Shown piece by piece: positions 14,875 through 60,452 of a stretch of 64,000 nucleotides of DNA. Numbering within the stretch: position 1 is the stretch's first letter; every line of letters starts with the position of its first letter. Position numbers and translations under genes: made by a program. Under the pieces are notes generated by a model. The model was not told the DNA's origin. It made no database searches and saw nothing but the letters and a program-made list of their open reading frames with translations. This DNA comes from Candidatus Yanofskybacteria bacterium (GTDB lineage Bacteria; Patescibacteriota; Minisyncoccia; 2-02-FULL-40-12; GWA2-44-9). The DNA lies in NCBI GenBank assembly GCA_020852375.1, contig JADZAY010000009.1, positions 12,690 to 76,689 on the forward strand, in the 5' to 3' direction.

Positions 14875-14876
14875 CC

Positions 14877-17465: not shown

Positions 17466-17986
17466 TCGAACCAACCGACCCACGAAGCCCGGAGGTGATC
17501 GAATATATCTCCCTGAGTCCCTACGCGGCGGCACTGCAGGGGAAAGACCCTATCGATCGGGAGTTGTTCGGTCTGGTCTTCGACGACCTCCCGGAGCCAG
17601 TGAAAGACACGCTAACCGATCCGACCACGGTGGAAACCATCAAGCAATGGGCGCGCGACGGTCTCTTTCCGGCAACACATGCTCCGGCCATCGCGAAGCT
17701 CATCGGGCTCGTCGCGCTCGACGAGGTTGCCTTCGAGGCCATCCCTCAACTCCTTGAGCGTATCGGGCTTTCCCGGGACCAAGCGGGGCGAACCACTGCC
17801 GCGATCACAAAACTCCTGCAGGCACTCACTGATGCGCGCGCGAACGAAACAGCAGAAGAGGCGGCGCCGCAGGAACTCCGTGAGCTCCCGCCGCTTACCC
17901 AACGCGTGCCTCCGCAAGGACCCCATTCTGGCACCGAGACGCCCGCGCGTAATATAATAGACTTACGCAAGAAGCCCGAAGCATGA
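17462..17986 (+). CDS. hypothetical protein (T4SS-like operon)
   Basis: 174-aa ORF translationally coupled to both neighbours. Confidence 0.45.
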   Translation: MIEPTDPRSPEVIEYISLSPYAAALQGKDPIDRELFGLVFDDLPEPVKDTLTDPTTVETIKQWARDGLFPATHAPAIAKLIGLVALDEVAFEAIPQLLERIGLSRDQAGRTTAAITKLLQALTDARANETAEEAAPQELRELPPLTQRVPPQGPHSGTETPARNIIDLRKKPEA

Positions 17987-18294
17987 AATTTCAAGTTCCT
18001 CAATTCATCGAGACGGAAACAAAGCTCATCGGGCCACTTACGCTCCGACAGTTCCTCTTCGTCGCTGGCGGCGTCAGCATGACCGCTATGGCGTATATCG
18101 CGCTGAATGGCATCTACTTTGCGATCGCCGCGATCCTCATTCTGGGATTCTTCGGAGCGCTCGCATTCGTACGGATCGACGGACAACCGTTCTTCAATTA
18201 TCTCGCCTACATGCTCGCGTACACGCTCGGCGCGAAGCGGTACATCTACCGAACCGGCGGGAACCAGAATCAATTCACACCACCTCATGCCTGA
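17983..18294 (+). CDS. PrgI-like / VirB3-like small two-TM membrane protein
   Basis: 103 aa, two TM helices (LFVAGGVSMTAMAYIALNGIYFAIAAILILGFFGALAFV), immediately upstream of VirB4. This arrangement is typical of Gram-positive and CPR T4SS loci. Confidence 0.5.
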   Translation: MKFQVPQFIETETKLIGPLTLRQFLFVAGGVSMTAMAYIALNGIYFAIAAILILGFFGALAFVRIDGQPFFNYLAYMLAYTLGAKRYIYRTGGNQNQFTPPHA

Positions 18295-18925
18295 ACCATC
18301 GACGACCGAACTGATCCAACTCCAATCCGTCTCGGACGGAGTCATCATCCTGAAGGACGACTCGCTCCGCGCTATCGTCGAGGTTACCGCCATCAACTTC
18401 GAGCTCCGAAGCGGCGAAGAACAGGCCGCCATTTTGCAACAATTCGCCGCATTTCTGAACTCCGTCGATTTCCCGGTCCAGCTCGTCGTCCACTCGCGCA
18501 GATTCGACATCAGCACCTACCTCGCCTCCGTACAGCAAGCCACCCAAGCACTGACTAATGACCTCCTGAAAGTGCAGGCGGAGGAATATATCCGGTTCGT
18601 CTCTGAGCTCTCAGACCTCGCGAACATCATGGCAAAGCGGTTCTACATCGTGCTGCCGCTTTCGGTCGTGCCGGTCGCCGCCAGCGGGGGATTTATCTCG
18701 GGAATCACCGGCCTGTTCAAAAAGAAGCCGAAAGAAACGGCGATCTCCCCAGAGCGCATCGCCCAATACAAGTCTCAGCTTCAGCAACGCGCGGAGATCG
18801 TCATCGGCGGCATCTCCGGCATGGGTTTGCGTGGGCGCATGCTCGAACAAGCGGAGGTCGTCACCCTGTTCAACGCGCTCTACAATCCGGTCATTCCCGC
18901 AACCAAGAAACCAGAAACACCGTAA
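18287..18925 (+). CDS. VirB4/TrbE-family protein, N-terminal domain fragment (split from ATPase domain)
   Basis: 213 aa starting MPEPSTTELIQLQSVSDGVIILKDDSLRAIVEVTAINFELRSGEEQ, resembling the N-terminus of conjugal-transfer ATPases. Ends with TAA 2 nt before the ATG of the ATPase ORF, in a different frame. Confidence 0.5.
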   Translation: MPEPSTTELIQLQSVSDGVIILKDDSLRAIVEVTAINFELRSGEEQAAILQQFAAFLNSVDFPVQLVVHSRRFDISTYLASVQQATQALTNDLLKVQAEEYIRFVSELSDLANIMAKRFYIVLPLSVVPVAASGGFISGITGLFKKKPKETAISPERIAQYKSQLQQRAEIVIGGISGMGLRGRMLEQAEVVTLFNALYNPVIPATKKPETP

Positions 18926-18927
18926 CC

Positions 18928-20670
18928 ATGGACGAATCCCTCTCGATCGCACAATCCATCGCACCGTCAGCGCTCCACATCACCCCGAACTACCTCCAGG
19001 TGGGGGACAAGTATGCGCGTACCATCGTGATCGCTTCGTACCCACGGTATTTGAACGCGAGTTGGCTCTCTCCGATCATCAATTTCGACAAGGTTCTCGA
19101 CATATCGATCTTCGTGAATCCGCAACAGACCTCCACAGTTCTCAAACAGTTGCGCGACAAGCTTGCACACGTCCAGGCCCAGATCATGGAGGAGGAGGCG
19201 GCTGGGAAGGTTCGGAACCCGGTACTCGAGACGGCCGCGCAAGACATCGAAGCGCTCCGCGATGAGCTTCAGCAGGGGACCGAACGCTTCTTCCAGGTTG
19301 GCCTCTATATCACCATCTACGAGAACAGCCCGCAGGAGCTGGACGAAACCGAAAAGACCATCCGCAGCATCCTCGACGGCCAGCTGGTCGTTGCCAAGCA
19401 GGCGACATTCCGTATGCTCGAGGGATTCCTGACCACATCGCCGCTCGCCGACGACCGCATTCAGGCGCTTACCGCACTCAACACGCAGCCGGTAGCATCG
19501 ATGTTCCCGTTCATATCGAGCGATCTTACCAGCGACTCCGGCATCTTGTATGGAGTGAACACGACGAACAATTCGCTCGTGCTCTTCGATCGCTTCTCGC
19601 TCGAGAACGCGAACACCGTGCTGTTCGCAAAGTCCGGTGCCGGAAAAAGCTACACCGTGAAGCTCGAGATCCTGCGTTCACTGATCATGGGGACGCAGAT
19701 CCTCGTCATCGACCCTGAGGACGAATATAAATATCTGAGCGACACGGTCGGCGGCACGAACGTGAAGATCTCGATCAACTCCGATCAGCACATCAATCCA
19801 TTCGACCTCCCGACACCAAAAGACGAGGAATCGTGGAGCGACGTGTTCAACTCACACATCCTTGGCCTCGCTGGCCTCATAAAACTGCTCATGGGAGGCC
19901 AGTTGTCACCGGAAGAGGAATCGATGATCGACCAGGCGCTCATCCAGACATACGCCCTGAAAGACATTACCCCCGATACCGACTTCTCGAATCTACCGCC
20001 GCCAGTGTTGAGCGACCTCCAAAGCATCCTCGAGGGGATGGCGGGGGCGGAACGCATGGCAACGCGCCTCAAGAAGTTCACCGAAGGAACATTCGCAGGA
20101 TTCCTCAACAATCCGACCAATGTTCCACTCGACAACCAGCTCGTCGTCTTCGGCATCAGAGACCTGGAAGACGAGCTTCGCCCGATCGCTATGTACTCGG
20201 TGCTCAACTACATCTGGACACAGGTGCGTCGCGAGCGGAAGAAGCGCATCCTCGTCGTCGATGAGGCCTGGTGGATCATGAAATTCCCGGTTGGAGCTGA
20301 CTTCTTGTTTAACATCGCGAAGCGCGGCCGAAAATATTACGTCGGACTCACCACGATCAGCCAGGACATCCCCGACTTCATGAGCGCGCCGCAAGGAAAG
20401 GCGATCGTGACGAACTCCTCCATTCAGGTGCTCATGAAGCAGTCTCCGGCGGCTATCGATATTATCCAGCAGACTTTCAACCTTACCGATTCGGAGAAAT
20501 ACTACCTCCTTGAAGCGCGCGTCGGGTTCGGGTTGTTCTTCCTCGGCGCAAACCATGTCGGGCTCCGGGTGCTCGCTTCCTACGCAGAAGACCAGATCAT
20601 CACCTCAGATCCGAAACAGCTCATCGAGATCGAAAAAGCAAAGCAAGAGTGGGCGAAGCTAAATACATAG
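18928..20670 (+). CDS. virB4: VirB4/TrbE/CagE-family type IV secretion ATPase (C-terminal and middle domains)
   Basis: Walker A FAKSGAGKSYT, Walker B ILVVDEAWWIM; 580 aa. Confidence 0.85.
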   Translation: MDESLSIAQSIAPSALHITPNYLQVGDKYARTIVIASYPRYLNASWLSPIINFDKVLDISIFVNPQQTSTVLKQLRDKLAHVQAQIMEEEAAGKVRNPVLETAAQDIEALRDELQQGTERFFQVGLYITIYENSPQELDETEKTIRSILDGQLVVAKQATFRMLEGFLTTSPLADDRIQALTALNTQPVASMFPFISSDLTSDSGILYGVNTTNNSLVLFDRFSLENANTVLFAKSGAGKSYTVKLEILRSLIMGTQILVIDPEDEYKYLSDTVGGTNVKISINSDQHINPFDLPTPKDEESWSDVFNSHILGLAGLIKLLMGGQLSPEEESMIDQALIQTYALKDITPDTDFSNLPPPVLSDLQSILEGMAGAERMATRLKKFTEGTFAGFLNNPTNVPLDNQLVVFGIRDLEDELRPIAMYSVLNYIWTQVRRERKKRILVVDEAWWIMKFPVGADFLFNIAKRGRKYYVGLTTISQDIPDFMSAPQGKAIVTNSSIQVLMKQSPAAIDIIQQTFNLTDSEKYYLLEARVGFGLFFLGANHVGLRVLASYAEDQIITSDPKQLIEIEKAKQEWAKLNT

Positions 20671-20671
20671 T

Positions 20672-21697
20672 ATGCCAGGAGAAGTATCGCCCCAAACACC
20701 AACAAACATCGTTCCACCGCCTCCGCAAAATGGTGGAGGTACACCGAAACCAGTCGATGGGGTCGGGGTGGGGGGCGCTATCGAGACGAGCGTAAACATT
20801 GCTGAGCGCCGTAAAGTCAAAAGAGATATCCGGGAAACGCGCCGCGTCTATGACATCGCAGCCGCCTCAGGAGCAACAACCCGAACCCGAGGAGCCAGAA
20901 CGGCGGGCGCCGTGCTTTCGTCGCCAGACCTTCCCCAAGAAGTCCGCGGACTCGCCGAGCGGCTCCGCTCGCTCATCTCTGACAACAAACGGAAAAGCGA
21001 AGATCGGACAAAGGAGTTCGACGCCATCCGCCGATCCATCAAGCGGTCGTTCATCGGTATCACCGGACTCGCACTGTATATCGCAATCTCCGCCGACATC
21101 CTCAGCATCTTTGACGCGGGGTGGATCATCTCGTGGGCAATTCCGATCGTGCTATTCTTCGTGGCTCGCCGCATCGGAGCGATCAATAAAGGAGCTGAGC
21201 GCGCGCAAAAGGCGTACGCAGCAACCCTCCGGGAGCTTCAGCTCATCAACCAACGCCTCGGCACCATCCCTGGGCAGCAACAGCGGCCCGTCCTTGCCGG
21301 TCTTACTGAACAGCTTCAGGGAAAAGTCGGTCAGTACATGACCCGGTTCGTCCTCGAAACCGCTGGCATACAAGGATTCGAGCTCATACCGATCCTGGAC
21401 TGGCTTCCCGCATACACCGGCGGAGTTGTGAAGGTAGCCATCGACCAGTACAACGCGTACCAAAAAGCTCAGCGCATGCTCCCGCCGCTTCAGGAGGCGT
21501 TCGCTCGCCTCGAACAGCTCGAGACGGAAGAAGTTGCGGCGCTCGAAGCGCAGCTCAGTGAAGCGCTTGCGTTGTATCAGCCGGAATTCACCGAGCGGTT
21601 TTATGTATCAGAAGAGGCCCCCCGTATCATGGATATAACCCGACCCTCGACGCGACCGCTCGAAGCGCCGTTGCTCGTACCCGAACCCGCACTATGA
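20672..21697 (+). CDS. membrane protein, hypothetical (T4SS-like operon)
   Basis: Pro-rich N-terminus, central TM pair, coiled-coil C-terminus. Coupled to VirB4. Confidence 0.5.
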   Translation: MPGEVSPQTPTNIVPPPPQNGGGTPKPVDGVGVGGAIETSVNIAERRKVKRDIRETRRVYDIAAASGATTRTRGARTAGAVLSSPDLPQEVRGLAERLRSLISDNKRKSEDRTKEFDAIRRSIKRSFIGITGLALYIAISADILSIFDAGWIISWAIPIVLFFVARRIGAINKGAERAQKAYAATLRELQLINQRLGTIPGQQQRPVLAGLTEQLQGKVGQYMTRFVLETAGIQGFELIPILDWLPAYTGGVVKVAIDQYNAYQKAQRMLPPLQEAFARLEQLETEEVAALEAQLSEALALYQPEFTERFYVSEEAPRIMDITRPSTRPLEAPLLVPEPAL

Positions 21698-22851
21698 AAC
21701 CCTTCCGCGCAAACCTGAATTTTGTCCACGAACGACGCATTGCCTCAGCCGGAGTTGTGATCGGCGCGCTTGTGGCAACCGTCGTCGTCACGGCGTTCGT
21801 GTGGAGCGGAGTAGCTCCGCGTTCTCGACAGACAGCATCGATTGCAAACATCCCGGCAGATACAACACCTCCGCAAACTTTGTCACCGAAGGCTGTTCGA
21901 GTTGCTCCAGAGCCTATCAGCGAACACGCTGTCAGCTCTGTGGCCCACAGTCGAACGCCCGATACCGTCCGCTACTACGAGCAAGAGACTGGGCGTGCGT
22001 TCCAAGTCGACCTCCGCACACTCAAGACGGAAACCCTTTCGGATCGCAAGCTCCCCGGATTCATTCAGTCGTTCTGGGTCCCGAATGCAGATGCGGTAGT
22101 CTCGTTGTTCGATGAAGCGGGGAGCAAAAAGTACCGCTACTATGACTACCAGACACGAACCGCAAAAACGATTGGGTCTGCTGTATCGACGCTCGCCGTC
22201 TCTCCAAGCGGACGCCGCATCGCGTTTATCGATACGACTGGTGAATATCAAGCTCTCTATATCGGCGACACTGATGGAACCGCGGTCCGCAAGGTATTCG
22301 ATACTCGCGCGCAGCACGTCGCTCTCTCGTGGCCCCGCGAAGACGCCTTGGTGCTCACCTCACGCAGGCCGGACCGCGCTGGAACGGATATGTCGGTCAT
22401 CGGACTGAACGGCGAGCTTCGTGTCCTCATGTCGAACCGCGAAAACCTGGAGTACACATGGTCGCCAGATGGGTCGAACCTCCTCTTCTCGTACTTCTTT
22501 CCAGGGAGGGGGATTACACTATGGTATCGCTCTCTCGATAGCGCCCTTGAGATTCCCGTCCCGCTCGCCACGAGCGCTTGGAAGTGCGCCTGGCACAACT
22601 CCAACGAAAAGATCACATGCGGCGTCCCAACCACAACGCTCTCGCGAGATGTGGCGTCCGACAAAACCGCAACGATCGACACCATCGCGACCATCGATCT
22701 TCGCAGCGGGAAGGTCTCGAATCTTTACACTGGCAGTCGGGAGCCCCTCATCGGGGTCATAAATCCCTCAATCTCATCATCGCAACGATACTTCGTCTTC
22801 ACAAACCTCTTCGACCGGCGGCTGATGGAGCTCGAGTTGCCCGCGTATTAG
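21694..22851 (+). CDS. membrane-anchored beta-propeller (TolB-like) protein, hypothetical
   Basis: N-terminal TM helix followed by a WD40/TolB-like repeat pattern. Last gene of the operon. Confidence 0.5.
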   Translation: MKPFRANLNFVHERRIASAGVVIGALVATVVVTAFVWSGVAPRSRQTASIANIPADTTPPQTLSPKAVRVAPEPISEHAVSSVAHSRTPDTVRYYEQETGRAFQVDLRTLKTETLSDRKLPGFIQSFWVPNADAVVSLFDEAGSKKYRYYDYQTRTAKTIGSAVSTLAVSPSGRRIAFIDTTGEYQALYIGDTDGTAVRKVFDTRAQHVALSWPREDALVLTSRRPDRAGTDMSVIGLNGELRVLMSNRENLEYTWSPDGSNLLFSYFFPGRGITLWYRSLDSALEIPVPLATSAWKCAWHNSNEKITCGVPTTTLSRDVASDKTATIDTIATIDLRSGKVSNLYTGSREPLIGVINPSISSSQRYFVFTNLFDRRLMELELPAY

Positions 22852-42496: not shown

Positions 42497-42871
42497 TTAG
42501 TTTTTTAGTCTCTTCCCCCGATAGTGAGCCGCTTCGGCGAGGAATCGTTCGTCATCTTTTGTGCTATGCCTGACGGCGTGGCAATTCGCACAGAGAAGAG
42601 TGCATTTCAGGATCTCTGCCCGGATGCTCTCCCAGCTCTTGTTCGCGACATTACCGAGAGTGAAGTCTTTCTTTTGTGGATCAAGATGATGGAATTGAAG
42701 GGCGGCCTGATGGCCCCTCCAGCCACAATCCACGCACTTTCCGCCGAGGATGCGTATGGCAGCCGCCTTGGTTCGATAGCGCCGGATCTTGGTGTTGCAG
42801 GCCCCGCATCTGGCGCGCATTTTCCCCTGGTAATCGTTGTACTCTTTGCCGCATAGTTTACAGATCGTCAT
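42497..42871 (-). CDS. HNH endonuclease (free-standing, zinc-ribbon N-terminus)
   Basis: CKLCGKEY..CGAC N-terminus. HNH core CVDCGWRGHQAALQFHHLDP...LLCANCHAVRH. Paralogous in architecture to the HNH gene at 2384-2755. Confidence 0.75.
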   Translation of the reverse strand: MTICKLCGKEYNDYQGKMRARCGACNTKIRRYRTKAAAIRILGGKCVDCGWRGHQAALQFHHLDPQKKDFTLGNVANKSWESIRAEILKCTLLCANCHAVRHSTKDDERFLAEAAHYRGKRLKN

Positions 42872-51658: not shown

Positions 51659-54124
51659 ATGGCGACAAAATCAAAACCTTCCACAACCGAATCGCTTCCG
51701 CAGGTGGCGCCTCGGCGCGAGATCACCGAAGAGATCCAAAAGTCCTATCTCGAATACGCCATGAGCGTGATCATGGCGCGTGCGCTGCCGGATGTGCGCG
51801 ACGGACTCAAGCCGGTCAATCGCCGCATCCTGTACGTCATGCACAAGCTGGGCCTGACGTTCGGCGCAAAGCTCCGCAAGTCCGCCGCAGTGGTCGGTGA
51901 TGTGCTGGGCAATTATCATCCGCATGGCGACACGGCCGTATACGACGCCATGGTGCGCATGGCGCAGGACTTTTCGATGCGATACCCCCTCGTGCACGGA
52001 CAGGGGAACTTCGGTTCGGTCGACGGCGACAGTCCTGCGGCGATGCGGTACACGGAAGCGAAGATGGCGCGCATTACCGATGAGGTGCTTGCCGACATTG
52101 AAAAGGATACGGTCGAATTCCGGCCGAACTACGATGGCACCAAGCAGGAGCCCGCGGTGCTTCCTACGCGCATTCCGAACCTGCTGGTGAACGGGACCAC
52201 GGGCATCGCGGTCGGTATGGCGACGAACATCCCCCCGCACAATCTGGGGGAGGTGCTGGATGGTCTTATTCATCTGATCGAAGAGCCTGATGCCGACGTG
52301 AAAGACCTCATGCAGTATGTGAAGGGCCCTGACTTTCCGACGGGCGGCTCGATCTTCAACGAGAAGGATATTCTGAATGCATACGCGACCGGGCGCGGTC
52401 CGGTTGTCATGCGCGGCACCGCCGAGATCCTCGAAGGAAAGCGGGGGCAGCAAATCGTTATCACCGAGATCCCGTATCAGGTGAACAAGGCGGAGCTCAT
52501 CGTGAAGATCGCTGACCTGGTCAAAGAGAAGCGCATCGATGGTATTCGGGACATTCGCGACGAATCGGACCGGCAGGGCATGCGCATCGTCATCGAGCTC
52601 AAGCAGGATGCGTTCCCAAAGAAGGTGTTGAACGCGCTCTACAAGATGACCGAGCTGCAGAAGACCTTCCACTTCAATATGATCGCGCTGGTGGACGGCA
52701 TTCAGCCGCAGATCCTCGGCTTGAAGACGATCCTGGAGAAGTTCGTTGAGCACCGCCAAGTCGTCGTCCGTCGTCGCAGCATGTACGAGCTCGAGCGGGC
52801 TCTGGAGCGCGCACATATCCTGGAGGGGCTCTCGAAGGCGCTCGATCACATTGACGAGATCATCAAGACGATTAAGCAGTCGCCGACTCGCGAGGAAGCG
52901 TTTACGAACTTGATGAAGAAGTTCAAGTTCTCGGATCGGCAGGCGAACGCCATCCTTGAGATGCGACTCCAGTCGCTTGCCGGCCTTGAACGCAAGAAGA
53001 TCGAGGACGAATTGGAAGAGAAGCGCGCGTTGATCGCCGAACTCGAGGAGCTTCTCAAGTCCGCGAAGAAGCTGCTTGGCGTGGTGAAAAAAGAGTTCAC
53101 CGAGCTTCGCGAGCGCTATGCGGACGAGCGGCGAACGCGTGTCGTAAAGACCGCGTTGCGCGAGATCGGGGACGAAGAGCTGGTTCCCGAAGAGGATGCG
53201 CTCTTCATGATCACGCTCGGCGGCTATATCAAACGGCTACCGCCCGACGAGCTGCGCGCGCAGAAGCGCGGCGGAAAGGGCGTCGGCGGCATGGCGACGA
53301 AAGAAGAGGATGTCATCAACCACTTCTTCCTTGCGAACACGCACGACAACATTCTCTTCTTCACGAACTCGGGCAAGGTGTTTCAGATCAGGGGATACGA
53401 GGTGCCTGAGGCGAGTCGACAGAGCAAAGGACGAGCGATCACGAACTTCCTCCAGGTCACCGCAAACGACAGCATCACCGCGGTGGTGCCGCTCCCCAAA
53501 GAGAAGGAGCAGAAGGGGCGGTTTCTGTTCATGGCGACCACGAACGGCATCATCAAGAAGGTTGCCATGGATGCGTTCGCGAACGTTCGGAAGAACGGAT
53601 TGCTCGCTATCAACCTGAAAGGCGGAGATCGCTTGGGTTGGGTATTCGGAACCTCGGGTGACGACCAGGTGGTCATGACGACCGCATCAGGTTCCGCGAT
53701 CCGCTTCAGCGAGGCGGATGTGCGCCCGATGGGGCGGGCTGCCGCCGGGGTCATGGGCATGCGCCTCGAGGCAGGAGATCGGGTGGTGGGCGCCGATGTT
53801 ATTCGCGCAGGAACCGAGAAGGGCCTTACGCTCATGGCGCTCATGGCGAATGGATACGGCAAACGGACCCAGCTCAAGGAATATAAGCTCCAGCATCGCG
53901 GCGGTGTCGGTATTTTGACCGCGAATATCACCTCGAAGACAGGACAATTGGTGTCCGCACATGTAACGGGCGAGGAGAACGAAGAGCTCATCGCCGTGTC
54001 CAAGAAGGGCCAGGTCATTCGGACATCCATTAAGGAGGTTCCCATTCTCGGCCGCGCCACGCAGGGTGTTCGCATCATGCGTCTCGACTCCGGAGACCAC
54101 ATCGCCTCCGTGGTGCTCTTCTAG
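51659..54124 (+). CDS. gyrA: DNA gyrase subunit A
   Basis: Active-site region [10 protein letters not shown] with Tyr, GyrA box, C-terminal beta-pinwheel repeats; 821 aa. Confidence 0.95.
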
Positions 54125-54181
54125 TAGCCCGTTTTCCACTCGAGCGCACCACGCCGAGCGGCGGTGTGCTAAAATAGGGGC

Positions 54182-54730
54182 ATGACGAACCTTCCCGGAC
54201 CTGGGGCGTTTCTTGATACGCGACGCATCGTTGCGTCGCTTGGTTCTCTGACTGGATCCCGTATTGCTGACCTCGGGTGCGGCTCCGGATACTTTACGAT
54301 TGATCTTGCGCGGGCTGTCGGCAAGGACGGCGTCGTTACCGCGGTCGATGTCATGGAAGAGCCCCTCCAGGCGGTGCAGGCGAAGGCGTCTGCTGCTGGG
54401 CTTAAGAATGTCCGGCCTGTTCGTGCAGACCTCGAAGTGCTCGGAGGTACGAAGATCCCGGACGGCAGTCAGGACATGGTGCTGGTTGCGAACGTCTTGT
54501 TTCAGTCACAGAAGAAAGAGGCGATCCTCGCCGAAGCGGTGCGGATGCTGAAGTCCGGTGGGCGGCTACTGGTTATCGATTGGAAGCGGGGTGCCAGAGG
54601 GTTCGGCCCTCCCGAACAACTCCGGACTGATGAAGCCACCATGCAGGGACTTGTTGTTGCGGCCGGAGCCCGATTCGAGCGCGCGGTTGATGCGGGATCG
54701 TTTTATTACGGACTTCTTTTCATCAAATGA
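54182..54730 (+). CDS. class I SAM-dependent methyltransferase
   Basis: Motif I ADLGCGSGYFT. Motif post-I VTAVDVME. Confidence 0.8.
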   Translation: MTNLPGPGAFLDTRRIVASLGSLTGSRIADLGCGSGYFTIDLARAVGKDGVVTAVDVMEEPLQAVQAKASAAGLKNVRPVRADLEVLGGTKIPDGSQDMVLVANVLFQSQKKEAILAEAVRMLKSGGRLLVIDWKRGARGFGPPEQLRTDEATMQGLVVAAGARFERAVDAGSFYYGLLFIK

Positions 54731-56058
54731 ACATCTCCTCATTCGTTACCGATTCGCGGAAGCTCACCTATGTCCTCGGGGGAGCCATTGCTTTCATGGT
54801 ATTCATCGCGTTCATTTTCATCCTCCGGAATGTTGGCGGACAGCAGACCGGCGGTGATGTAACGCTGAAGGTGTGGGGCGTGTTCGACGATCGGGCGGTG
54901 TTCAGCGCCGCGTTCAAGGCATTTGAGACCGCCAACAAGGGAGTGCACATCGACTATCAGGTGTTCCCGCCGCAGGAATATGAGGCTGCGGTCATCAACG
55001 CCCTTGCCGCAGGACGGGGGCCGGATGTCTGGATGATGCATCACACATGGCTCCCCAAGCATATCGACAAGATACAGCCCATGCCTGAACGGCTGACGGG
55101 TGACAAAGAGCCGCTCATGACCATCAAGCAGTTCAAGGATCTGTTCGTGGATGTCGCCGCATATGATCTCGTGAACAACGGAAAGATCTATGGGCTGCCG
55201 CTCTATGTCGATACGCTTGCGCTGTACTACAACAAAGACATGTTCTCGAGCGCCGGCATCGCACAACCGCCGCGCACGTGGAACGACTTCATGGATGATG
55301 TGAAGAAGATCACGCAGTATGATGCGAATCGCAATATCACGCGGTTGGGTGCTGCAATGGGCTCGGCAAGGAACATCAACCGCTCTACGGATATCCTCAT
55401 GATGCTCATGCTCCAGTCGGGCGTGCAGATGACGAATGCCGATGGGACCCAAGCCACGTTCTCTCGTTCGGTTGATGGGCAGAATGTCGGCGAGCGCGCG
55501 CTTATGTTCTACACGGACTTCACGAATCCGCAGAAAGAGGTCTATACCTGGAACGATGCGATGGATTACTCCATCGATGCATTTGCTGAGGGGTCAACGG
55601 CGATGATGATCAACTATGCTCACCAGGTTTCCGTTATTCGCAGTAAGGCGCCGCGCCTGAACTGGGCCGTTGCCGCGGTTCCGCAGGCGAGTACGGTGGA
55701 TGCCCGAACCTACGCCAACTATTGGCCACTGGTCGTTTCGCTGAAATCGGAGCATCCCGAGACTGCATGGCGATTGGTGCATTACCTTGCTGCCGGAGAG
55801 GGAACCGTTCCCTACCTGAACGCGGCGAATCGTCCGTCGGCGCGGCGCGATCTCATCGAACAACAGAAGAGCGACCCCGATCTTGGCGTGTTTGCGTTGC
55901 AGGCTCTGACGGCACGTTCCTGGCTCCAAGCGAACAATCAGACCATTGAGACTATTTTTGCCGACATGATCGACGCGGTGAATCTTGGGCGGCAATCCAT
56001 TACGAATGCGCTTCGAGATGCGGAGACAAAGGTGTCGGTGCTCATGAGCGGCCGGTGA
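54727..56058 (+). CDS. ABC transporter substrate-binding protein (family 1, sugar-type), membrane-anchored
   Basis: N-terminal TM helix, then an SBP fold (KVWGVFDD..., LPLYVDTLALYYNKDMF). Confidence 0.75.
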   Translation: MNISSFVTDSRKLTYVLGGAIAFMVFIAFIFILRNVGGQQTGGDVTLKVWGVFDDRAVFSAAFKAFETANKGVHIDYQVFPPQEYEAAVINALAAGRGPDVWMMHHTWLPKHIDKIQPMPERLTGDKEPLMTIKQFKDLFVDVAAYDLVNNGKIYGLPLYVDTLALYYNKDMFSSAGIAQPPRTWNDFMDDVKKITQYDANRNITRLGAAMGSARNINRSTDILMMLMLQSGVQMTNADGTQATFSRSVDGQNVGERALMFYTDFTNPQKEVYTWNDAMDYSIDAFAEGSTAMMINYAHQVSVIRSKAPRLNWAVAAVPQASTVDARTYANYWPLVVSLKSEHPETAWRLVHYLAAGEGTVPYLNAANRPSARRDLIEQQKSDPDLGVFALQALTARSWLQANNQTIETIFADMIDAVNLGRQSITNALRDAETKVSVLMSGR

Positions 56059-56065
56059 TACCACG

Positions 56066-57184
56066 ATGTTGCGCATTCTCCGAAAACGGATAGGCCCTGT
56101 GATCGCGCTTACCTGGATTGCTGCGGTTTTCTTGCTCCCACATATCGCTCGGGCTGAATTCTTCCCGCTCATACCGTGTGGATCCGAGGCGGCAGGGCAG
56201 GTGCCGTGCACCCCATGTGATCTGTTCAAGACCGCAAAGAATCTCATTGACCTGGTACTCTACGGCGTCACGGGGCCAATCGCGGCGTTCATGATCGTGA
56301 TCGCCGGTGGCATGATCCTCTTGGGTGGCGAATACCCGGATCGCCTCAAGCAGGGAAAGGAGCTACTCCGGAACACACTGATCGGGGTCGCGATCATCTT
56401 ATTCTCGTGGGTTGCCGTAACGACGCTCATTAAGATGTTGGGTGCAGGGAGCAAGTATGACGCGTGGTACGAGTTTAGCTGTCCGATCGGGCTATCGAAT
56501 ATTCCGCCCATCGTGACCGCTACCCCAACGTCCACGGCCGTGGTCCTCCCGCCGCGGCCGGTGGCGACTCCGCCGCCAAATGTCGGCGCTCGAACGATGG
56601 CTGATGTGCTTCCGATCTGCGGGACGACGGGGGCGAACGGGAAACCATTTCAGTGCGGGGACTGCACACAGAAGGTGGATCTGGCGACCGGGAAGACATA
56701 CGGGAGCATTATGCAGCAGTATGCGGGTGGTCCGGTCACGGCTAGCCTGCTCGACGCGATCATGTATCAGGAGTCACGGTGTCAGACCGGTCTCGCAAGC
56801 AAGGCGGGAGCGTATGGCATCATGCAGATACTTCCGAGTACCGCGAACGGCTTTCGTGGCGCGTGCGGCGTTTCAGAGCGCATTAATGCCGGGTGGCTTA
56901 TGAGCGAGGTAAATACTGAGAAGAGCATTTGTATCGCCGCTGCGTATCTGAAATCGCTGGTCGGTGCTTGTGGGAACAGCCCGGTTCACCTGGCGGCAAA
57001 CTACAACGGAAGCAATGCATGCGCACCGAGCAGGGATTGCGCGAATGTGCAGAGCTGCACGGGAGAAGGAGCGATGCGCCGCTGGGAATGCCCGTGGAAC
57101 GACCCGCAACACACCAGTTCGAACACGGGGTTTATCGAGACGCGCAAATACGCACCGAATGTTGGGTACTGTGCATCACGCTAA
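56066..57184 (+). CDS. fusion protein: VirB2/TrbC-like pilin domain + lytic transglycosylase (SLT/VirB1-like) domain
   Basis: N-terminus: signal peptide, Cys pair CGSEAAGQVPCTPCDLF, then two TM helices (the pilin-like pattern also seen in the downstream paralogs). C-terminus: SLT motifs ESRCQ..AYGIMQILPSTA. Confidence 0.55.
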   Translation: MLRILRKRIGPVIALTWIAAVFLLPHIARAEFFPLIPCGSEAAGQVPCTPCDLFKTAKNLIDLVLYGVTGPIAAFMIVIAGGMILLGGEYPDRLKQGKELLRNTLIGVAIILFSWVAVTTLIKMLGAGSKYDAWYEFSCPIGLSNIPPIVTATPTSTAVVLPPRPVATPPPNVGARTMADVLPICGTTGANGKPFQCGDCTQKVDLATGKTYGSIMQQYAGGPVTASLLDAIMYQESRCQTGLASKAGAYGIMQILPSTANGFRGACGVSERINAGWLMSEVNTEKSICIAAAYLKSLVGACGNSPVHLAANYNGSNACAPSRDCANVQSCTGEGAMRRWECPWNDPQHTSSNTGFIETRKYAPNVGYCASR

Positions 57185-57187
57185 TTT

Positions 57188-57775
57188 ATGCGACACATCA
57201 TTATTCTCTTCACGATGCTCGTAGTTGCCGGTGGCGGAGTAGTTGGGTTTGCCCGCGCTGACGACATCACCCCACAGGAGTTCTTGTACGCATTTCACCT
57301 TCGGTGGGCCGGCGGCGTTCCGACGTGGGCCGAGTCGTATGAGCTGACGACTGGCGGGCAGGTGACTCCGGAGCCGGGCGCTTGGAGACTTCGCATTATT
57401 GCTTCGAATGGGACGGTGCTCGAGGAGTACCCGGTGAACCAGCAGCAGGATGGGAAGGAAGATATGATTCTGGCCTATACCGGTCGCGGAGCGCGTGCGG
57501 TGTTGCTTGATGCGCAAGGAGTGTCGCGTTTGGAGGTGGATCTTTCTGGGAGTCAGGTGTGTAACGATGATGGTGTGTGCGATGGGCAATATGGGGAGGA
57601 CGGACGAAACTGTCCCGTAGATTGCGCCGGGAGCGTCGGCTCCGCCACGATCAGCGAGCAGGGATCGTTTGGGCGACAGGTGGGCGCATGGATGATGCGG
57701 GTGAGCTTTGCGCTTGTCGGCGTGCTCTTGCTTGGAGCCGCCCTGCGGACGCTAGACAGTCGTAGGCGAGCATAG
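57188..57775 (+). CDS. secreted protein with C-terminal membrane anchor, hypothetical
   Basis: Signal peptide. Cys-rich motif CNDDGVCDGQYGEDGRNCPVDC. C-terminal TM helix. Confidence 0.45.
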   Translation: MRHIIILFTMLVVAGGGVVGFARADDITPQEFLYAFHLRWAGGVPTWAESYELTTGGQVTPEPGAWRLRIIASNGTVLEEYPVNQQQDGKEDMILAYTGRGARAVLLDAQGVSRLEVDLSGSQVCNDDGVCDGQYGEDGRNCPVDCAGSVGSATISEQGSFGRQVGAWMMRVSFALVGVLLLGAALRTLDSRRRA

Positions 57776-57779
57776 GATA

Positions 57780-58061
57780 ATGCACGATATGGCCGAAGTC
57801 TTTCCTATCAGAAACCCCATCGGTGTCGACAATCTGCAGGATCTGTTTGCGATGCTCAGCGAGCGCATTCTTGATATTGTCATCCCTATCGCAGTGCTCA
57901 TGTATGTTTGGGCGGGAGTGAACCTTCTGATCGCCGCGGGCGATACGGGCAAGATCAAGAAAGCGAAGGACATTATGAAGTGGACGACGGCCGGCCTGCT
58001 TATCATTTTTATCGGAGGCGGGTTCGTCGATCTGATCCGTAGTATTCTGAACGCCGGGTGA
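57780..58061 (+). CDS. VirB2/TrbC-like pilin paralog 1
   Basis: 93 aa, two TM helices separated by a short charged loop (AAGDTGKIKKAKD). Confidence 0.5.
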   Translation: MHDMAEVFPIRNPIGVDNLQDLFAMLSERILDIVIPIAVLMYVWAGVNLLIAAGDTGKIKKAKDIMKWTTAGLLIIFIGGGFVDLIRSILNAG

Positions 58062-58330
58062 TCATGGACACGACGAACACATTCGGATTCGATCGGGTGG
58101 TTGCAGTGCTGAACTACCTTGCCGATACGGCTCTTCTGCTCGCCGGACTCCTGGCGGTCGTCATGATCATATGGTTCGGGCTTCGCATGGCGACCGCAAA
58201 GGGCGATCCGAAGGTATTCGATGATGCGAAGAATCACCTCATCAAGGCCGTCATCGGGGCGATGATCATCTTTGGCGTGTATACTATCATCAACACCATT
58301 GGCGGCGCAGCAGAGACGCTCACTCAATAA
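58058..58330 (+). CDS. VirB2/TrbC-like pilin paralog 2
   Basis: 90 aa, two TM helices, loop TAKGDPKVFDDAKNH. Overlaps paralog 1 by 4 bp. Confidence 0.5.
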   Translation: MIMDTTNTFGFDRVVAVLNYLADTALLLAGLLAVVMIIWFGLRMATAKGDPKVFDDAKNHLIKAVIGAMIIFGVYTIINTIGGAAETLTQ

Positions 58331-58354
58331 GGACTTATCTGGTATACTTGCTCT

Positions 58355-58717
58355 ATGAGGCTTCCAAAACCACTCGCCAAGCTTGTCGTAATTCTCGGCT
58401 CATCTTCTCCGCTGCTCGCTGTGGCGCAGTCGGTTCCTGTTCCAATTGATGGAGACACCCTGACTCTTTCGAAGGTTGTAGTGCTGGTGGAAGATCTTAT
58501 TAATACGTTTTTCATCCTTGTTTCGGTGGTCATCGTGGGTGTTATGGTGTTCGCCGGCTTGAAAATGGCGACTGCACGAGGAGACGAGAAAGAGTTTGCT
58601 AAAGCGAAGCTTATGCTGAGGCAGGCAGTTATTGGTGCCGTTATCGTATTCGGGGTAGGTGTCATCATTAAAACGATCGCGGACTTTGCAACGAATCCTA
58701 CGCAAATCCTGCGCTAG
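58355..58717 (+). CDS. VirB2/TrbC-like pilin paralog 3 (with signal peptide)
   Basis: 120 aa. Signal peptide plus two TM helices, loop TARGDEKEFAKAK. Confidence 0.5.
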   Translation: MRLPKPLAKLVVILGSSSPLLAVAQSVPVPIDGDTLTLSKVVVLVEDLINTFFILVSVVIVGVMVFAGLKMATARGDEKEFAKAKLMLRQAVIGAVIVFGVGVIIKTIADFATNPTQILR

Positions 58718-58732
58718 AAAGGGGGTGTCGCT

Positions 58733-59110
58733 ATGAAACGAACTATTCAGAAATACGGAGCAGCTGCAGCATTGTTCGCGCTGATGGTCGCACCGACCGT
58801 TGCGCTTGCGATCACGCAGCCGACGATCCCGCCGGGTGTTTCGGGGCAGACCATTAAGGGGTCTGATGTGGTGCGCATCATCAATGATGTGGTGCAGACT
58901 CTCATCACGATCAGTGTGGTTGTCGCCATCGGATACTTCATCCTTGGTGCGATCAACTACGCAACTGGGCAGAAGTTTTTGGCGGGAGATAAGGGTGATG
59001 GGAAGAGCATGATGAAGAACGCGGTGTGGGGCATCGCCCTCATGCTGGCTATCGGGCTCATCATCAACACGGTCGCCGGATTCATCAATCGCGGTCTCAA
59101 TCTCGGCTAG
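58733..59110 (+). CDS. VirB2/TrbC-like pilin paralog 4 (with signal peptide)
   Basis: 125 aa. Signal peptide plus two TM helices, loop FLAGDKGDGKSMMKN. Followed by terminator 59131-59160. Confidence 0.5.
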   Translation: MKRTIQKYGAAAALFALMVAPTVALAITQPTIPPGVSGQTIKGSDVVRIINDVVQTLITISVVVAIGYFILGAINYATGQKFLAGDKGDGKSMMKNAVWGIALMLAIGLIINTVAGFINRGLNLG

Positions 59111-59130
59111 TCCATCCGTGGCCACGGATA

Positions 59131-59160
59131 CCACAAACCCCCGGAATCGGGGGTTTGTGG
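59131..59160. terminator. hairpin terminator after the pilin array
   Basis: CCACAAACCCCCG-gaat-CGGGGGTTTGTGG. Confidence 0.55.
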
Positions 59161-59167
59161 TAGGGAG

Positions 59168-59248
59168 TGCGCCCGGAGGGAGTTGAACCCCCACGCCTTA
59201 CGGCACCGCCTCCTAAGGGCGGCGTGTCTGCCAATTCCACCACGGGCG
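59168..59248 (-). tRNA. tRNA-Leu (anticodon TAG), long variable arm
   Basis: Acceptor GCGCCCG/CGGGCGC. Anticodon loop ctTAGga. Variable arm TGCCGTAAGGCGT. Confidence 0.85.
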
Positions 59249-59283
59249 CGTGCTCGGTATTGTACCGTCGGAGCGACAAAAAT

Positions 59284-59313
59284 GAAAGCCGGTACCTACG
59301 GGTGCCGGCTTTC
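59284..59313. terminator. hairpin terminator after hsp20
   Basis: GAAAGCCGG-tacctacgggtg-CCGGCTTTC, with a T-run on the minus strand. Confidence 0.5.
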
Positions 59314-59321
59314 TGGTGGGG

Positions 59322-59723
59322 CTACTTCAATTCTATCTTCAGCCGCTTGGTCTTTGCTTTTTCGAGTGTCGGGAGGCGGATCGTGAGGATGCCGTTCTTC
59401 ATGCTTGCCTTGGCGCCGTCGGCGTCGACTTCTTCGGGAAGAATGATCGAGCGTGAGAACGGACCCCAGTAGAGCTCTTGGTAGTAGTAATTCTGGGAGC
59501 GCACCTTGGATTCAGGGGAGCGGGAGCCCTTAATGGTCACCATGTCATTCAGGATGCTGATGTCGATGTCGGCGGCAGTCGCGCCAGCGATCGTGGACTG
59601 GATGACAATGTCGCCTTCGTCGCGATAGACATCAACGGTGAGCGAGCCCTCGGGCTGTTCTTGGTCTTTCCGTGATGCGGCGAGCTGGATGTCGAGCTCT
59701 TCGTCGTTTGGGGTGTAGGGCAT
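59322..59723 (-). CDS. Hsp20/alpha-crystallin family small heat shock protein
   Basis: ACD motifs; GILTIRLP near the C-terminus. Confidence 0.85.
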   Translation of the reverse strand: MPYTPNDEELDIQLAASRKDQEQPEGSLTVDVYRDEGDIVIQSTIAGATAADIDISILNDMVTIKGSRSPESKVRSQNYYYQELYWGPFSRSIILPEEVDADGAKASMKNGILTIRLPTLEKAKTKRLKIELK

Positions 59724-59726
59724 AGA

Positions 59727-60452
59727 TCACGCAACGCTCGGGGTTACCCGGTCGCCTCGTTCTTTGATTTTATCAAATAACACCGATATAAGGAAAGCCA
59801 TACCCATCAACAGGGCAGTGGAGAAGAGGAGGCTTACCGAGCGGTGCATCTGCGAGATGAACAGATTGAATGTCCAATGGAATACGGTTGCAAGCGCGAA
59901 TCCGATGGCAAAGAGGGTCTTCCGGTTGGTGAAGTAGAACCATGCGAGGGCGATGAAGTATCCGAGGAGGGCGGATGATAGTGCGTGGAGCAGGGTGGCA
60001 CCGGCAAAGCGGAGCGACCAAATGCCGAGCGTTGCCGAGAGCCCATCCCCAATGACTCGGTTGATGACGAGGATGTTTTCCATTGCTGCGAATCCCATGG
60101 CCGCGGTGAGCATATAGATCATCGCATCCACTGGCTCATCGAAGTCAGGCGAGCGAAGGACTACAAAGAATACGGCGAGGTACTTTACCGCCTCCTCGAC
60201 CGCTGCGGCCCATAAATAGAATCCCGGGGTTCCTGATAGCGTTGCCGGATCTCCGCCGAACATCTTCGCGATGAGCTGGACGAAAAGGAGCTGGAACATG
60301 ATGGCAAGCGGCGACAACATGATGCCCAGGAGCAGCACCTTCGTGATGAGAACTTTCGGCTCCGGATGGCAGTCTTTGCGCAGCCAATACGCAAGCCAAA
60401 TCAGGCTAGGGAGCGAGCCAACGAATACGAGCAAGAGGTATGACCCCATCAC
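59727..60452 (-). CDS. PrsW family intramembrane metalloprotease
   Basis: Multi-TM protein with EEAVKY, FAAMEN and HALSSALLGY motifs. Confidence 0.7.
   Translation of the reverse strand: MMGSYLLLVFVGSLPSLIWLAYWLRKDCHPEPKVLITKVLLLGIMLSPLAIMFQLLFVQLIAKMFGGDPATLSGTPGFYLWAAAVEEAVKYLAVFFVVLRSPDFDEPVDAMIYMLTAAMGFAAMENILVINRVIGDGLSATLGIWSLRFAGATLLHALSSALLGYFIALAWFYFTNRKTLFAIGFALATVFHWTFNLFISQMHRSVSLLFSTALLMGMAFLISVLFDKIKERGDRVTPSVA

Follow-up and report, generated by a model that had tools for sequence, protein, structure and literature searches.

What does a run of small pilin-like genes do in an ultra-small bacterium when it is headed by a gene that joins a pilin module to a peptidoglycan-cutting enzyme, and which machine does it serve? 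The question is raised by a 64,000-nt stretch of DNA (the window) from a MAG of Candidatus Yanofskybacteria (Patescibacteria, Parcubacteria group), an ultra-small CPR genome. An earlier note on the window had claimed a pilin-SLT fusion followed by small-protein genes at 56066-59110, and the ORF list places six close-packed forward-strand ORFs exactly there. These genes, two domains of the first and the gene upstream are as follows.

54727-56058, + strand: SBP_bac_1 solute-binding protein (SBP), membrane-anchored (Pfam PF01547, 1.7e-34)
56066-57184, + strand: A, 372 aa, pilin-like hairpin plus SLT lytic transglycosylase (ORF, Pfam, alignment, AF2, Foldseek)
56231-56440, + strand: hairpin of A, aa 56-125 (pairwise identity, hhalign)
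56678-57181, + strand: SLT domain of A, aa 205-372 (Pfam, alignment, AF2, Foldseek, profile alignment)
57188-57775, + strand: B, 195 aa, membrane-anchored protein (hydropathy, alignment)
57780-58061, + strand: C, 93 aa, pilin paralog p1 (PF18895)
58058-58330, + strand: D, 90 aa, pilin paralog p2 (PF18895)
58355-58717, + strand: E, 120 aa, pilin paralog p3 (PF18895)
58733-59110, + strand: F, 125 aa, pilin paralog p4 (PF18895 below cutoff, hhalign)

The spacers A-B, B-C, C-D, D-E and E-F measure 3, 4, -4, 24 and 15 nt, respectively, and p2 begins with a GTG start in a 4-nt overlap with the p1 stop. The SBP gene ends 7 nt 5' of A; it is a conserved neighbour, found immediately 5' of the fusion in most Yanofskybacteria-like loci and missing where the fusion adjoins virB4. 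The block is flanked by housekeeping genes, with gyrA, a methyltransferase and the SBP on one side, HSP20, PrsW and ValRS on the other, and TsaD also nearby. Its order and sequence are kept at the same chromosomal place in approximately 40 related species genomes, and the fusion proteins of these syntenic relatives are 34-75% identical to A. This conservation is well above chance expectation, and the block is vertically inherited.

Protein A is composed of a signal peptide (aa 1-30, ..ARA/EF), a Cys-bearing segment (31-55), helix 1, a short charged loop and helix 2 (56-125), a Pro/Thr linker (148-204) and a Cys-rich SLT domain (205-372). Against the T4SS_pilin family PF18895, A scored 25.9 bits over residues 65-120, slightly under the Pfam cutoff of 26.6, and its homologs P0037, P0032 and L022 scored above it (27.1, 29.9 and 39.4 bits). 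The AF2 model of A (pLDDT 79.7 overall) places the hairpin helices at 50-86 and 91-125. The N-terminal part had previously been described as a two-TM pilin-like domain with a Cys pair; the two-TM pilin stands, and the pair gives way to three Cys before helix 1 (C38, C48 and C51), which are conserved together with C139 after helix 2 among the 16 Cys of the protein.

The enzyme domain announced in the earlier note, with its GIMQ motif, was borne out by Pfam, a structure model and profile comparison. Pfam assigned residues 224-316 to SLT (PF01464; 50.9 bits, E 1.3e-13, cutoff 21.3 bits), and the characteristic motifs were found as the catalytic E236-S237, G251-I-M-Q and Y313-N314-G. In a 27-member alignment, E236, S237, G251, Y313 and N314 were invariant and 15 Cys were conserved. 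The AF2 model exceeded pLDDT 90 in the SLT domain (residues 200-372), and its best Foldseek matches were Slt, MltE, MltF and MltC with a probability of 1.00, placing it in the goose-lysozyme-like fold; in a profile alignment, the E-S and GxMQ motifs line up with those of MltC (9vi7) and Slt70. The SLT domain is predicted to be extracytoplasmic, and A probably acts as a lytic transglycosylase. The hairpin is the part of A that varies least: mean pairwise identity reached 64% there, against 49% for the SLT domain and 30% for the linker, and such conservation above the enzyme is atypical for a passive anchor.

Both domains occurred together in at least 134 database proteins (134 of 188 retrieved), with the pilin module N-terminal of SLT every time, and the fusion family comprised 79 representatives at E<=1e-30, certain of its members carrying extra large domains of 500-1100 aa. 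The fusion had been called unusual; this holds for the published literature, in which we found no description of a VirB2-like/VirB1-like fusion, but not for nature, where at least 134 proteins share the architecture. In a sister clade, the SLT domain at the same chromosomal site has been exchanged for another Cys-rich domain, with the hairpin retained and no B. In this C-terminal domain (P0037 family), H253, D267 and H339-x-H341 are invariant. Searches of Pfam, PDB sequences, PDB structures by Foldseek and phage sequences by tblastn gave no match, and the best BFVD match was a phage 'Peptidase M15', which was weak (Foldseek E 0.037, probability 0.93). The domain is possibly an M15-like peptidase.

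The four small proteins each consist of two hydrophobic helices and a short charged loop, as does the hairpin of A, which is the VirB2-type shape (hydropathy, alignment). Scores against PF18895 make C, D and E members (36.1, 39.7 and 30.4 bits), and F falls below the cutoff at 20.9 bits. The best TrbC/VirB2 (PF04956) scores were 22.5 bits for D (E 1.3e-4) and 13.6 bits for A, and none passed the cutoff of 27.9; the pilin-like proteins resemble PF04956 without being members. The description of the four as VirB2/TrbC-like pilins was right as to pilin type, the match being to PF18895 (for C, D and E) rather than to PF04956. The best NCBIfam match of C, D and E was NF045849 (Mbov_0395 family; 21.6-28.3 bits), of which they are not members because all scores lie below its 40-bit cutoff. 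Profile-profile comparison (hhalign) linked all five pilin-like modules, that is, the A hairpin and p1-p4, at 88-99.6% probability, including 88-98% for the A hairpin against the four small-pilin orthogroups and 99.6% for F against p3, values to be read with caution, given how simple a fold the helical hairpin is and that profile scores can be raised by hydrophobic composition.

Signal-peptide-like N-terminal segments were seen by hydropathy in A, B, E and F, with AxA sites in A, E (..AVA/QS) and F (..ALA/IT); E and F are the two of the four small proteins with putative signal peptides, as had been reported. C and D have none, and an upstream in-frame extension is impossible for either. In this respect C and D are unlike classical VirB2 propilins.

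The paralogs are only 19-29% identical to one another within the array. Across genomes, by comparison, 835 of 840 best matches fell at the same array position, so that each small pilin forms a positional orthogroup. Positional orthologs are 48-82% identical for p1, the best conserved of the four, which keeps the N-terminal motif I-x-NP[LI]G[VS] and ends in ..GGGFVDLIRSILNAG; 36-70% identical for p2; and 35-89% identical for p4, which keeps a P-T-x-P-P motif and the C-terminus ..NRGLNLG. The four thus appear to be old specialised paralogs, each predating the divergence of the compared genomes. Positional orthology points to fixed, distinct roles and argues against antigenic variants, and the antigenic diversification once proposed for these paralogs finds no support in the best matches.

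Gene B had been described as coding for a secreted Cys-rich protein. It has a signal peptide, a domain of approximately 100 aa and, at its C-terminus, a TM helix followed by a basic RRRA tail (hydropathy, alignment), and the last two features indicate a membrane-anchored rather than a freely secreted protein; it has only four Cys, all in the invariant motif C-x5-C-x4-GE-x4-C-x2-DC. It matched nothing in Pfam, NCBIfam, PDB or PHROG and is identical (100%) to 'hypothetical protein IT406_02505 [Candidatus Yanofskybacteria bacterium]'. Of 39 loci with the SLT-type fusion, 34 have B after it, whereas none of the four loci with the alternative-domain fusion does; this co-occurrence of B and SLT amounts to about one evolutionary event because those four loci are probably a single clade. 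On this distribution, B appears to be a partner conserved along with the SLT-type fusion.

The window also contains a cluster with a VirB4-like ATPase. It lies beside dnaA, in an oriC-proximal position 35 kb from the block.

14877-17465, + strand: 862-aa polytopic membrane protein, VirB6-like candidate, judged solely from its position and topology (at least six hydrophobic segments), with no Pfam match
17983-18294, + strand: PrgI/VirB3-like T4SS protein (Pfam PrgI PF12666, 1.3e-11)
~18287-18925, + strand: TrsD-like ORF, ~212 aa (position; visual likeness to the ORF between prgI and virB4 in the relative L049)
18928-20670, + strand: VirB4-like ATPase, presumed motor (Pfam P-loop_TraG 1.4e-19, AAA_10; CagE_TrbE_VirB weak)

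No pilin match was obtained near this virB4, and neither a relaxase nor a coupling protein is evident within the window. Since the block lies 35 kb from virB4 here and has housekeeping and SBP neighbours, the link between the two is drawn from other lineages. In L049, a more distant relative, the fusion comes immediately after virB4. In L022, L045 and L047, likewise more distant relatives, it lies approximately 4 kb downstream of virB4 and is followed by B, beside dnaA; a large pilin, the fusion and B end the virB4 cluster there, adjoining khpB-yidC-rnpA-dnaA, and this site is the chromosomal site of the window's own VirB4 cluster. The placement of the fusion within these four virB4 clusters supports the proposal of the earlier note that the locus supplies the VirB4 machine 35 kb off, and the block most likely serves that T4SS.

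Taken together, we give a probability of roughly 0.6 to the reading that the block provides, from a separate site, the pilins and the wall hydrolase of a chromosomal MPF-FATA-like T4SS whose core lies beside dnaA. A would be exported via its own signal peptide, its VirB2-like hairpin would enter the cytoplasmic membrane so that its short charged loop faces the cytoplasm, and its disulfide-rich C-terminal SLT domain would end up outside the membrane on the flexible Pro/Thr linker. Owing to its pilin-type anchor, A would partition with the membrane pilin pool and the machine that handles pilins, and cleavage of glycan strands in the cell's own wall would therefore take place at the very spot through which the pilus or channel has to go. 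VirB1-type work would thus be performed through a VirB2-type anchor. The products of p1-p4 would be distinct, non-interchangeable pilin-like subunits, for example, major and minor or initiating ones, and B, anchored in the membrane, would partner the SLT version specifically, perhaps as a regulator or adaptor. We infer the enzymatic activity of A, its targeting through the hairpin, the formation of a pilus and the role of B.

The same features can be turned outward. The fusion may be a minor pilin, at the tip of the T4SS pilus or sparsely along it, that carries its enzyme to host peptidoglycan, whose breach would allow attachment, the insertion of a channel or the release of nutrients in epibiosis, with a peptidase version in the sister clade. 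A hairpin conserved above its enzyme is what fitting into a polymer lattice would require, and the enzyme comes after helix 2, set apart from it by a long flexible linker. In solved conjugative pili (F and T pilus structures), the pilin termini point outward, which suits an enzyme in this position. The many conserved extracellular Cys suggest disulfide stabilisation outside the cell, the extra 500-1100-aa domains of some relatives and the exchange of the enzymatic head between clades on a constant hairpin fit such a role, and the T4SS is essential to epibiotic growth in Saccharibacteria (PMC10633639). However, a 25-kDa head may clash sterically with a pilin lattice, save at its terminus, and the classical VirB1 role on the own wall is a simpler account of the same data, and we consider this outward use possible but unlikely. 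More doubtful again is its extension to the Paceibacteria at large, in which the PF18895 hairpin would be a general 'pilin handle' that loads interchangeable wall-degrading enzymes and large adhesin-like domains onto the T4SS filament, the fusion an enzymatic minor pilin drilling the host wall, and B a cognate inhibitor or chaperone that protects the producer.

Less probable than either is that A is an ordinary anchored lytic transglycosylase for growth or division in a cell with very few autolysins, the hairpin being a recruited anchor and the small proteins unrelated to type IV secretion. The co-directional housekeeping string around the block (gyrA, methyltransferase, SBP), its distance from virB4 and its vertical inheritance would suit wall remodelling of this kind. 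Against this stand the fusion inside the virB4 clusters of four other lineages, with B in three of them, the conservation of the anchor above the enzyme, the joint retention of five PF18895-type modules and the pilin array of Southlakia, which is essential and lies within a T4SS cluster (PMC10633639). A prophage-type lysis cassette, with A as a signal-anchored endolysin and the small proteins as holins or antiholins, is effectively refuted, for despite the match of the SLT domain to phage lytic proteins in PHROGs (e.g., phrog_342, 1.5e-08) and the superficial resemblance of two-TM proteins beside a muramidase, B-F have no PHROG match, the small proteins match T4SS_pilin instead of proving holin-like, which the earlier note had named as grounds for rejection, no phage genes lie nearby, housekeeping genes make up the chromosomal flanks, and synteny persists even with fusions just 34-75% identical.

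If the block is indeed the pilin and wall-hydrolase module of the dnaA-proximal T4SS, the missing wall-cutting function is, in a large Paceibacteria lineage, joined to a pilin module in one protein. Among T4SSs, that of Patescibacteria is alone in having been shown to be essential to its owner's growth (PMC10633639; discussed in PMC12857230). The fusion is inherited jointly with four fixed pilin paralogs and partner B, which gives a defined six-gene parts list and grounds for annotating these genes as T4SS components even when they are far from virB4. The general picture of the Patescibacteria T4SS is unchanged by this locus, and the finding rests on sequence inference; pilin arrays and oriC-proximal T4SSs have already been published, whereas for the VirB2-like/VirB1-like fusion we found no description.

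MPF-FATA-like T4SSs near dnaA and VirB2-like pilin arrays have been described in Patescibacteria (Quinonero-Coronel et al., 2025; PMC12102498), and in Southlakia epibionticum epibiotic growth requires both the array (SEML1_0006-0019; PMC12102498, PMC10633639) and the T4SS (Wang et al., 2023; PMC10633639). The pilus itself is described as 'potential' (PMC12857230), and none has been seen in any Patescibacterium. The present array shares with the published ones its tandem, divergent PF18895/PF04956-type pilins (approximately 25% mean identity in PMC12102498 and 19-29% here), a VirB4 of MPF-FATA-like type encoded on the chromosome close to dnaA, neither a relaxase nor a coupling protein being evident across the window, and pilin genes away from virB4, as in approximately 40% of assemblies (PMC12102498). 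It differs in being headed by a pilin-lytic transglycosylase fusion with a dedicated partner B, and in its housekeeping context 35 kb from virB4. Host-range or antigenic versatility was suggested for such arrays (PMC12102498), whereas positional orthogroups were found here. In the same survey, most genomes with VirB2-like pilins were without VirB1, from which it was concluded that pilus biogenesis needs no VirB1; in the present lineage, in contrast, a pilin module and a VirB1-type domain share one protein.

Tandem virB2 copies are also present in Bartonella and Anaplasma; according to work cited in PMC12102498, they are considered young and variable and to serve immune evasion, whereas the copies here appear older and fixed in position. 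The Mbov_0395 family of Mycoplasma ICEs (NF045849) likewise consists of small two-helix pilin-like proteins of a monoderm T4SS, but has no fused enzyme. VirB1 of Agrobacterium and other MPF-T systems shares with A the fold and motifs of family-1 lytic transglycosylases and has an accessory role in building the T4SS and the pilus; it is, however, a soluble periplasmic protein of diderms that is unfused to VirB2, and its C-terminal part, VirB1*, is without counterpart in A. PrgK (pCF10), TraG (pIP501), TcpG, CD419 and TrsG are, like A, extracytoplasmic SLT-type muramidases tethered to a monoderm cytoplasmic membrane; they are encoded with VirB4/VirB6/PrgI-type T4SSs and are thought to open the wall locally (PMC12102498 and references therein). 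These enzymes are tethered by a plain TM helix at the N-terminus and usually bear CHAP/NlpC or LytM as a second domain, whereas A is predicted to combine a cleaved signal peptide and a VirB2-like hairpin with just one Cys-rich SLT domain, and B comes next in the block.

Six open reading frames on the plus strand (56066–59110) were present exactly as the earlier note had described them, with intergenic spacers of 3, 4, −4, 24, and 15 nt:

54727–56058: membrane-anchored SBP_bac_1 solute-binding protein, ending 7 nt 5' of A
56066–57184, plus strand: A, 372 aa, pilin-type hairpin fused to an SLT lytic transglycosylase domain
57188–57775, plus strand: B, 195 aa, membrane-anchored protein
57780–58061, plus strand: C (p1), 93 aa, small pilin paralog
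58058–58330, plus strand: D (p2), 90 aa, small pilin paralog
58355–58717, plus strand: E (p3), 120 aa, small pilin paralog
58733–59110, plus strand: F (p4), 125 aa, small pilin paralog
59167–59249, minus strand: tRNA-Leu(tag), directly 3' of the last pilin gene, closing the block

The tRNA gene also marks the end of a co-directional gene string starting at gyrA (51659). Promoter and terminator counts over 54000–59800 were no higher than in shuffled sequence and were thus uninformative.

According to Pfam analysis, A contains an SLT domain (residues 224–316; 50.9 bits; E value, 1.3e-13) and matches the T4SS_pilin family PF18895 at residues 65–120 with 25.9 bits, below the cutoff of 26.6. The same cutoff was passed by p1, p2, and p3 (36.1, 39.7, and 30.4 bits, respectively), and p4 scored 20.9 bits. 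The cutoff of the classical TrbC/VirB2 family PF04956 (27.9 bits) was reached by no protein, the top score being 22.5 bits for p2. Sub-threshold NCBIfam matches linked p1–p3 to a Mycoplasma ICE pilin-like family and A to several lytic transglycosylases. The pilin modules are mutually 19–29% identical, and profile–profile comparison joined all five at 88–99.6% probability. In hydropathy analysis, each pilin module showed a pair of hydrophobic helices, and signal-peptide-like N-termini were present in A, B, p3, and p4 but not in p1 and p2.

The architecture of A was resolved by an alignment of 27 full-length homologs. The family has a cleavable leader (..ARA/EF), conserved C38, C48, and C51 N-terminal to helix 1, C139 after helix 2, a hairpin conserved to a striking degree (..NxIDLVLYGITGPIAAFMIVxAGGMMLLGG.. 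/ ..NTLIGVxIIL..), a variable Pro/Thr linker, and an SLT domain in which E236-S237, G251 (GxMQ), and Y313-N314 (YNG) are invariant and approximately ten further Cys are conserved. Mean pairwise identity was 64% in the hairpin, 49% in the enzyme domain, and 30% in the linker. The AlphaFold2 model (pLDDT 79.7 overall; above 90 for residues 200–372) showed helices at 50–86 and 91–125 and a lysozyme-like C-terminal domain. Against the PDB, Foldseek matched this model only to family-1 lytic transglycosylases (Slt, MltE, MltF, MltC, and Slt70; probability 1.00 each), and in a profile search the E-S and GLMQ motifs aligned to MltC and Slt70. Cleavage of the leader and two passages through the membrane would place the SLT domain outside the cell. 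The conserved Cys flanking the hairpin (C38, C48, and C51, window 56177–56218; C139, window 56480–56482) could disulfide-link its two extracellular ends, an arrangement reminiscent of head-to-tail cyclisation in certain VirB2/TrbC pilins; Cys is absent from all four small pilins.

A word-indexed search returned approximately 30 full-length homologs of A, many with PF18895 and PF01464 in precomputed Pfam annotation, and the nearest fusion-bearing genome was Candidatus Yanofskybacteria SJ168 (fusion 75% identical); the lineage belongs to the Parcubacteria group of the Patescibacteria. An exhaustive search of 1.84 billion representatives gave 3546 hits at E ≤ 1e-3, of which 575 reached E ≤ 1e-10 and 79 reached E ≤ 1e-30. 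Both domains occurred in 134 of the 188 retrieved proteins, with the pilin module first in every case, and some two-domain proteins reached 500–1100 aa with extra domains. A scan of GTDB species genomes yielded 44 loci in Yanofsky-, Taga-, Lloyd-, and Doudnabacteria and further Paceibacterota. The fusion thus forms a well-populated, lineage-wide family and is not peculiar to one genome. Fusion homologs of 750–1130 aa carry long N-terminal or linker insertions (loci L035, 4048–7062; L050, 3766–6525; L031, 4186–6468; proteins P0166, P0113, and P0072), and protein P0043 has He_PIG Ig-like repeats ahead of its pilin module.

Relatives whose fusions are 34–75% identical have the block at the same chromosomal site, in the order gyrA, methyltransferase, solute-binding protein, fusion, B, and three or four pilins, followed by HSP20, PrsW, and ValRS on the opposite strand. 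This shared housekeeping site marks the block as vertically inherited chromosomal DNA and neither a mobile element nor a prophage. A conjugative island was likewise rejected, given that site and as no relaxase or integrase was seen. The solute-binding gene, an orphan with neither an ABC permease nor an ATPase as neighbour, lies directly 5' of the fusion in this window, as it does in most related loci, and is absent where the fusion adjoins virB4. Its position could reflect synteny alone, or its product could bind released wall fragments.

[quoted passage not shown]

within 12296–22851: TSP3-repeat protein and 554-aa Cys-rich secreted protein
14877–17465: polytopic membrane protein, 862 aa
17983–18294: PrgI (Pfam, 1.3e-11)
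about 18287–18925: TrsD-like ORF
18928–20670: VirB4
after VirB4: 341-aa membrane protein and PD40 beta-propeller protein
beyond the cluster, minus strand: khpB-yidC-yidD-rnpA; then dnaA (24937) and dnaN

GC skew switches sign near 24–26 kb. Two home-made HMMs detected no further pilin genes elsewhere in the window, including near virB4. A 124-aa Cys-rich ORF (CxxC...CxxC) at 42497–42871 on the minus strand, among tRNA genes, looks like a zinc-ribbon.

In four more distant genomes, a homologous fusion was found inside the T4SS cluster. In L049, prgI, a trsD-like gene, and virB4 come in this order, with the fusion directly after virB4; in L022, L045, and L047, the order is virB4, two to three membrane-protein genes, the gene of a large pilin, fusion, B, and khpB-yidC-rnpA-dnaA-dnaN, a site corresponding to that of the window's own VirB4 cluster. 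By Pfam, the L022 fusion passed both cutoffs (PF18895, 39.4 bits; SLT, 31.1 bits), that of L045 scored 32.4 bits for PF18895 and 17.3 bits, below cutoff, for SLT, and that of L049 reached a sub-cutoff 24.0 bits for PF18895 with no SLT hit, its SLT assignment resting on local searches. The pilin/hydrolase module has evidently been relocated by approximately 35 kb in the Yanofskybacteria-like lineage. The presence of the fusion within virB4 clusters supports the earlier suggestion that this locus serves the distant VirB4 machine.

Loci with four small pilins numbered 15, of which L003 and L007 duplicate L002 and L001, leaving 13 distinct genomes. In 835 of 840 cross-locus comparisons, a pilin found its best match in the protein at its own position, and identity was 35–89% within a position across genomes versus 19–29% between positions within a genome. 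Each position also has its own characteristics: p1 lacks a leader, starts with I-x-NPLGV, and ends with GGGFVDLIRSILNAG; p2 lacks a leader; p3 has one; and p4 combines a leader with a P-T-x-P-P motif and an NRGLNLG end. This positional orthology and these signatures indicate that the four paralogs are ancient and non-interchangeable. Of the two kinds of diversification once proposed, an antigenic-variation array is rejected on the positional orthology, and the differences among p1–p4 argue for distinct structural roles. Position 1 is held in other lineages by 300–600-aa proteins with the same pilin module. In many relatives, this first pilin after B joins PF18895 to a large extra domain (L017, 7840–9387; L019, 7884–9491; L033, 1822–3627; L026, 1801–3288; L038, 6047–7882); at this position the window lineage has a minimal 93-aa pilin.

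B consists of a leader, a domain of approximately 100 aa, an invariant C-x5-C-x4-GE-x4-C-x2-DC motif, a C-terminal TM helix, and a basic RRRA tail. It matched nothing in Pfam, NCBIfam, PHROGs, or a PDB profile search, and a word-indexed protein search returned only two Yanofskybacteria "hypothetical" matches; B and hypothetical protein IT406_02505 of Candidatus Yanofskybacteria bacterium share 100% identity. In 34 of the 39 loci with enough downstream sequence, the gene for B comes after the SLT-type fusion. In a sister clade at the same chromosomal site (P0030–P0042, labelled "pilin" by NCBI; L005, 10001–11089; also L018, L020, and L025), the hairpin is retained at 55–66% identity, a different Cys-rich domain, in which H253, D267, and H339-x-H341 are invariant, stands in place of SLT, and all four loci lack B; BLASTP found no similarity that would indicate fusion of B into the sister-clade protein. 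Pfam, PDB profile, phage tblastn, and protein database searches returned nothing for the replacement domain. Its model (pLDDT 72) had no significant Foldseek match in the PDB, and the best BFVD match, to a phage "Peptidase M15", was weak (E value, 0.037; probability, 0.93). We consider a peptidoglycan peptidase plausible, though unproven; in that case, the pilin hairpin would be a carrier of wall hydrolases that can be exchanged for one another.

Taken together, we consider it probable (roughly 60%) that the Patescibacterial T4SS has its pilin and VirB1-like module in this block. Through the pilin-type hairpin, a lytic transglycosylase, predicted to be active, would join the membrane pool and machine of the pilins, and opening of the cell's own wall would be confined to the exit point of the filament or channel; p1–p4 would polymerise as specialised subunits, and B may be a partner specific to the transglycosylase. 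The same hairpin and extracellular enzyme could also make A an enzymatic minor pilin, shown on the filament and breaching a host wall, which we regard as unlikely. A transglycosylase that has a housekeeping role and a recruited anchor, unconnected to the T4SS, is less probable still; conservation within A is highest in the hairpin, which is unusual for a simple anchor. A holin or prophage lysis cassette is hardly credible, as the five non-enzymatic proteins (B and p1–p4) have no PHROG match and the synteny of the block is conserved.

The pilin array and T4SS context are already known. Patescibacteria carry a chromosomal MPF-FATA-like T4SS, often adjoining dnaA; of the 1,948 assemblies with VirB2-like pilins, 1,135 have them near virB4, and 441 arrays contain 2–11 divergent pilin genes (PMC12102498). 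Epibiotic growth of Southlakia requires both its pilin series and its T4SS (PMC10633639; reviewed in PMC12857230). VirB1 homologues were few and tied to virB4 mainly in Paceibacteria, and pilus biogenesis was proposed to proceed probably without need of VirB1 (PMC12102498). The main text and searched supplements of that survey do not mention a pilin/SLT fusion, no SLT or PF01464 entries were found in the text of its supplementary tables, and a literature search on PF18895 and Patescibacteria lytic transglycosylases found no other description. As far as found, the VirB2-like/VirB1-like fusion, accompanied by its partner B and the four fixed paralogs, represents a common yet undescribed variant. 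The observation of the earlier note thus stands and its interpretation was essentially right. Read from sequence, the finding does not overturn current views; what it offers is a defined list of parts, together with hypotheses open to test, for a machine that is essential yet still mysterious. The closest functional analogues of A are the TM-anchored muramidases of Gram-positive conjugation (PrgK, TraG-pIP501, TcpG, CD419, and TrsG), which differ in having a plain TM helix and usually a second hydrolase domain.
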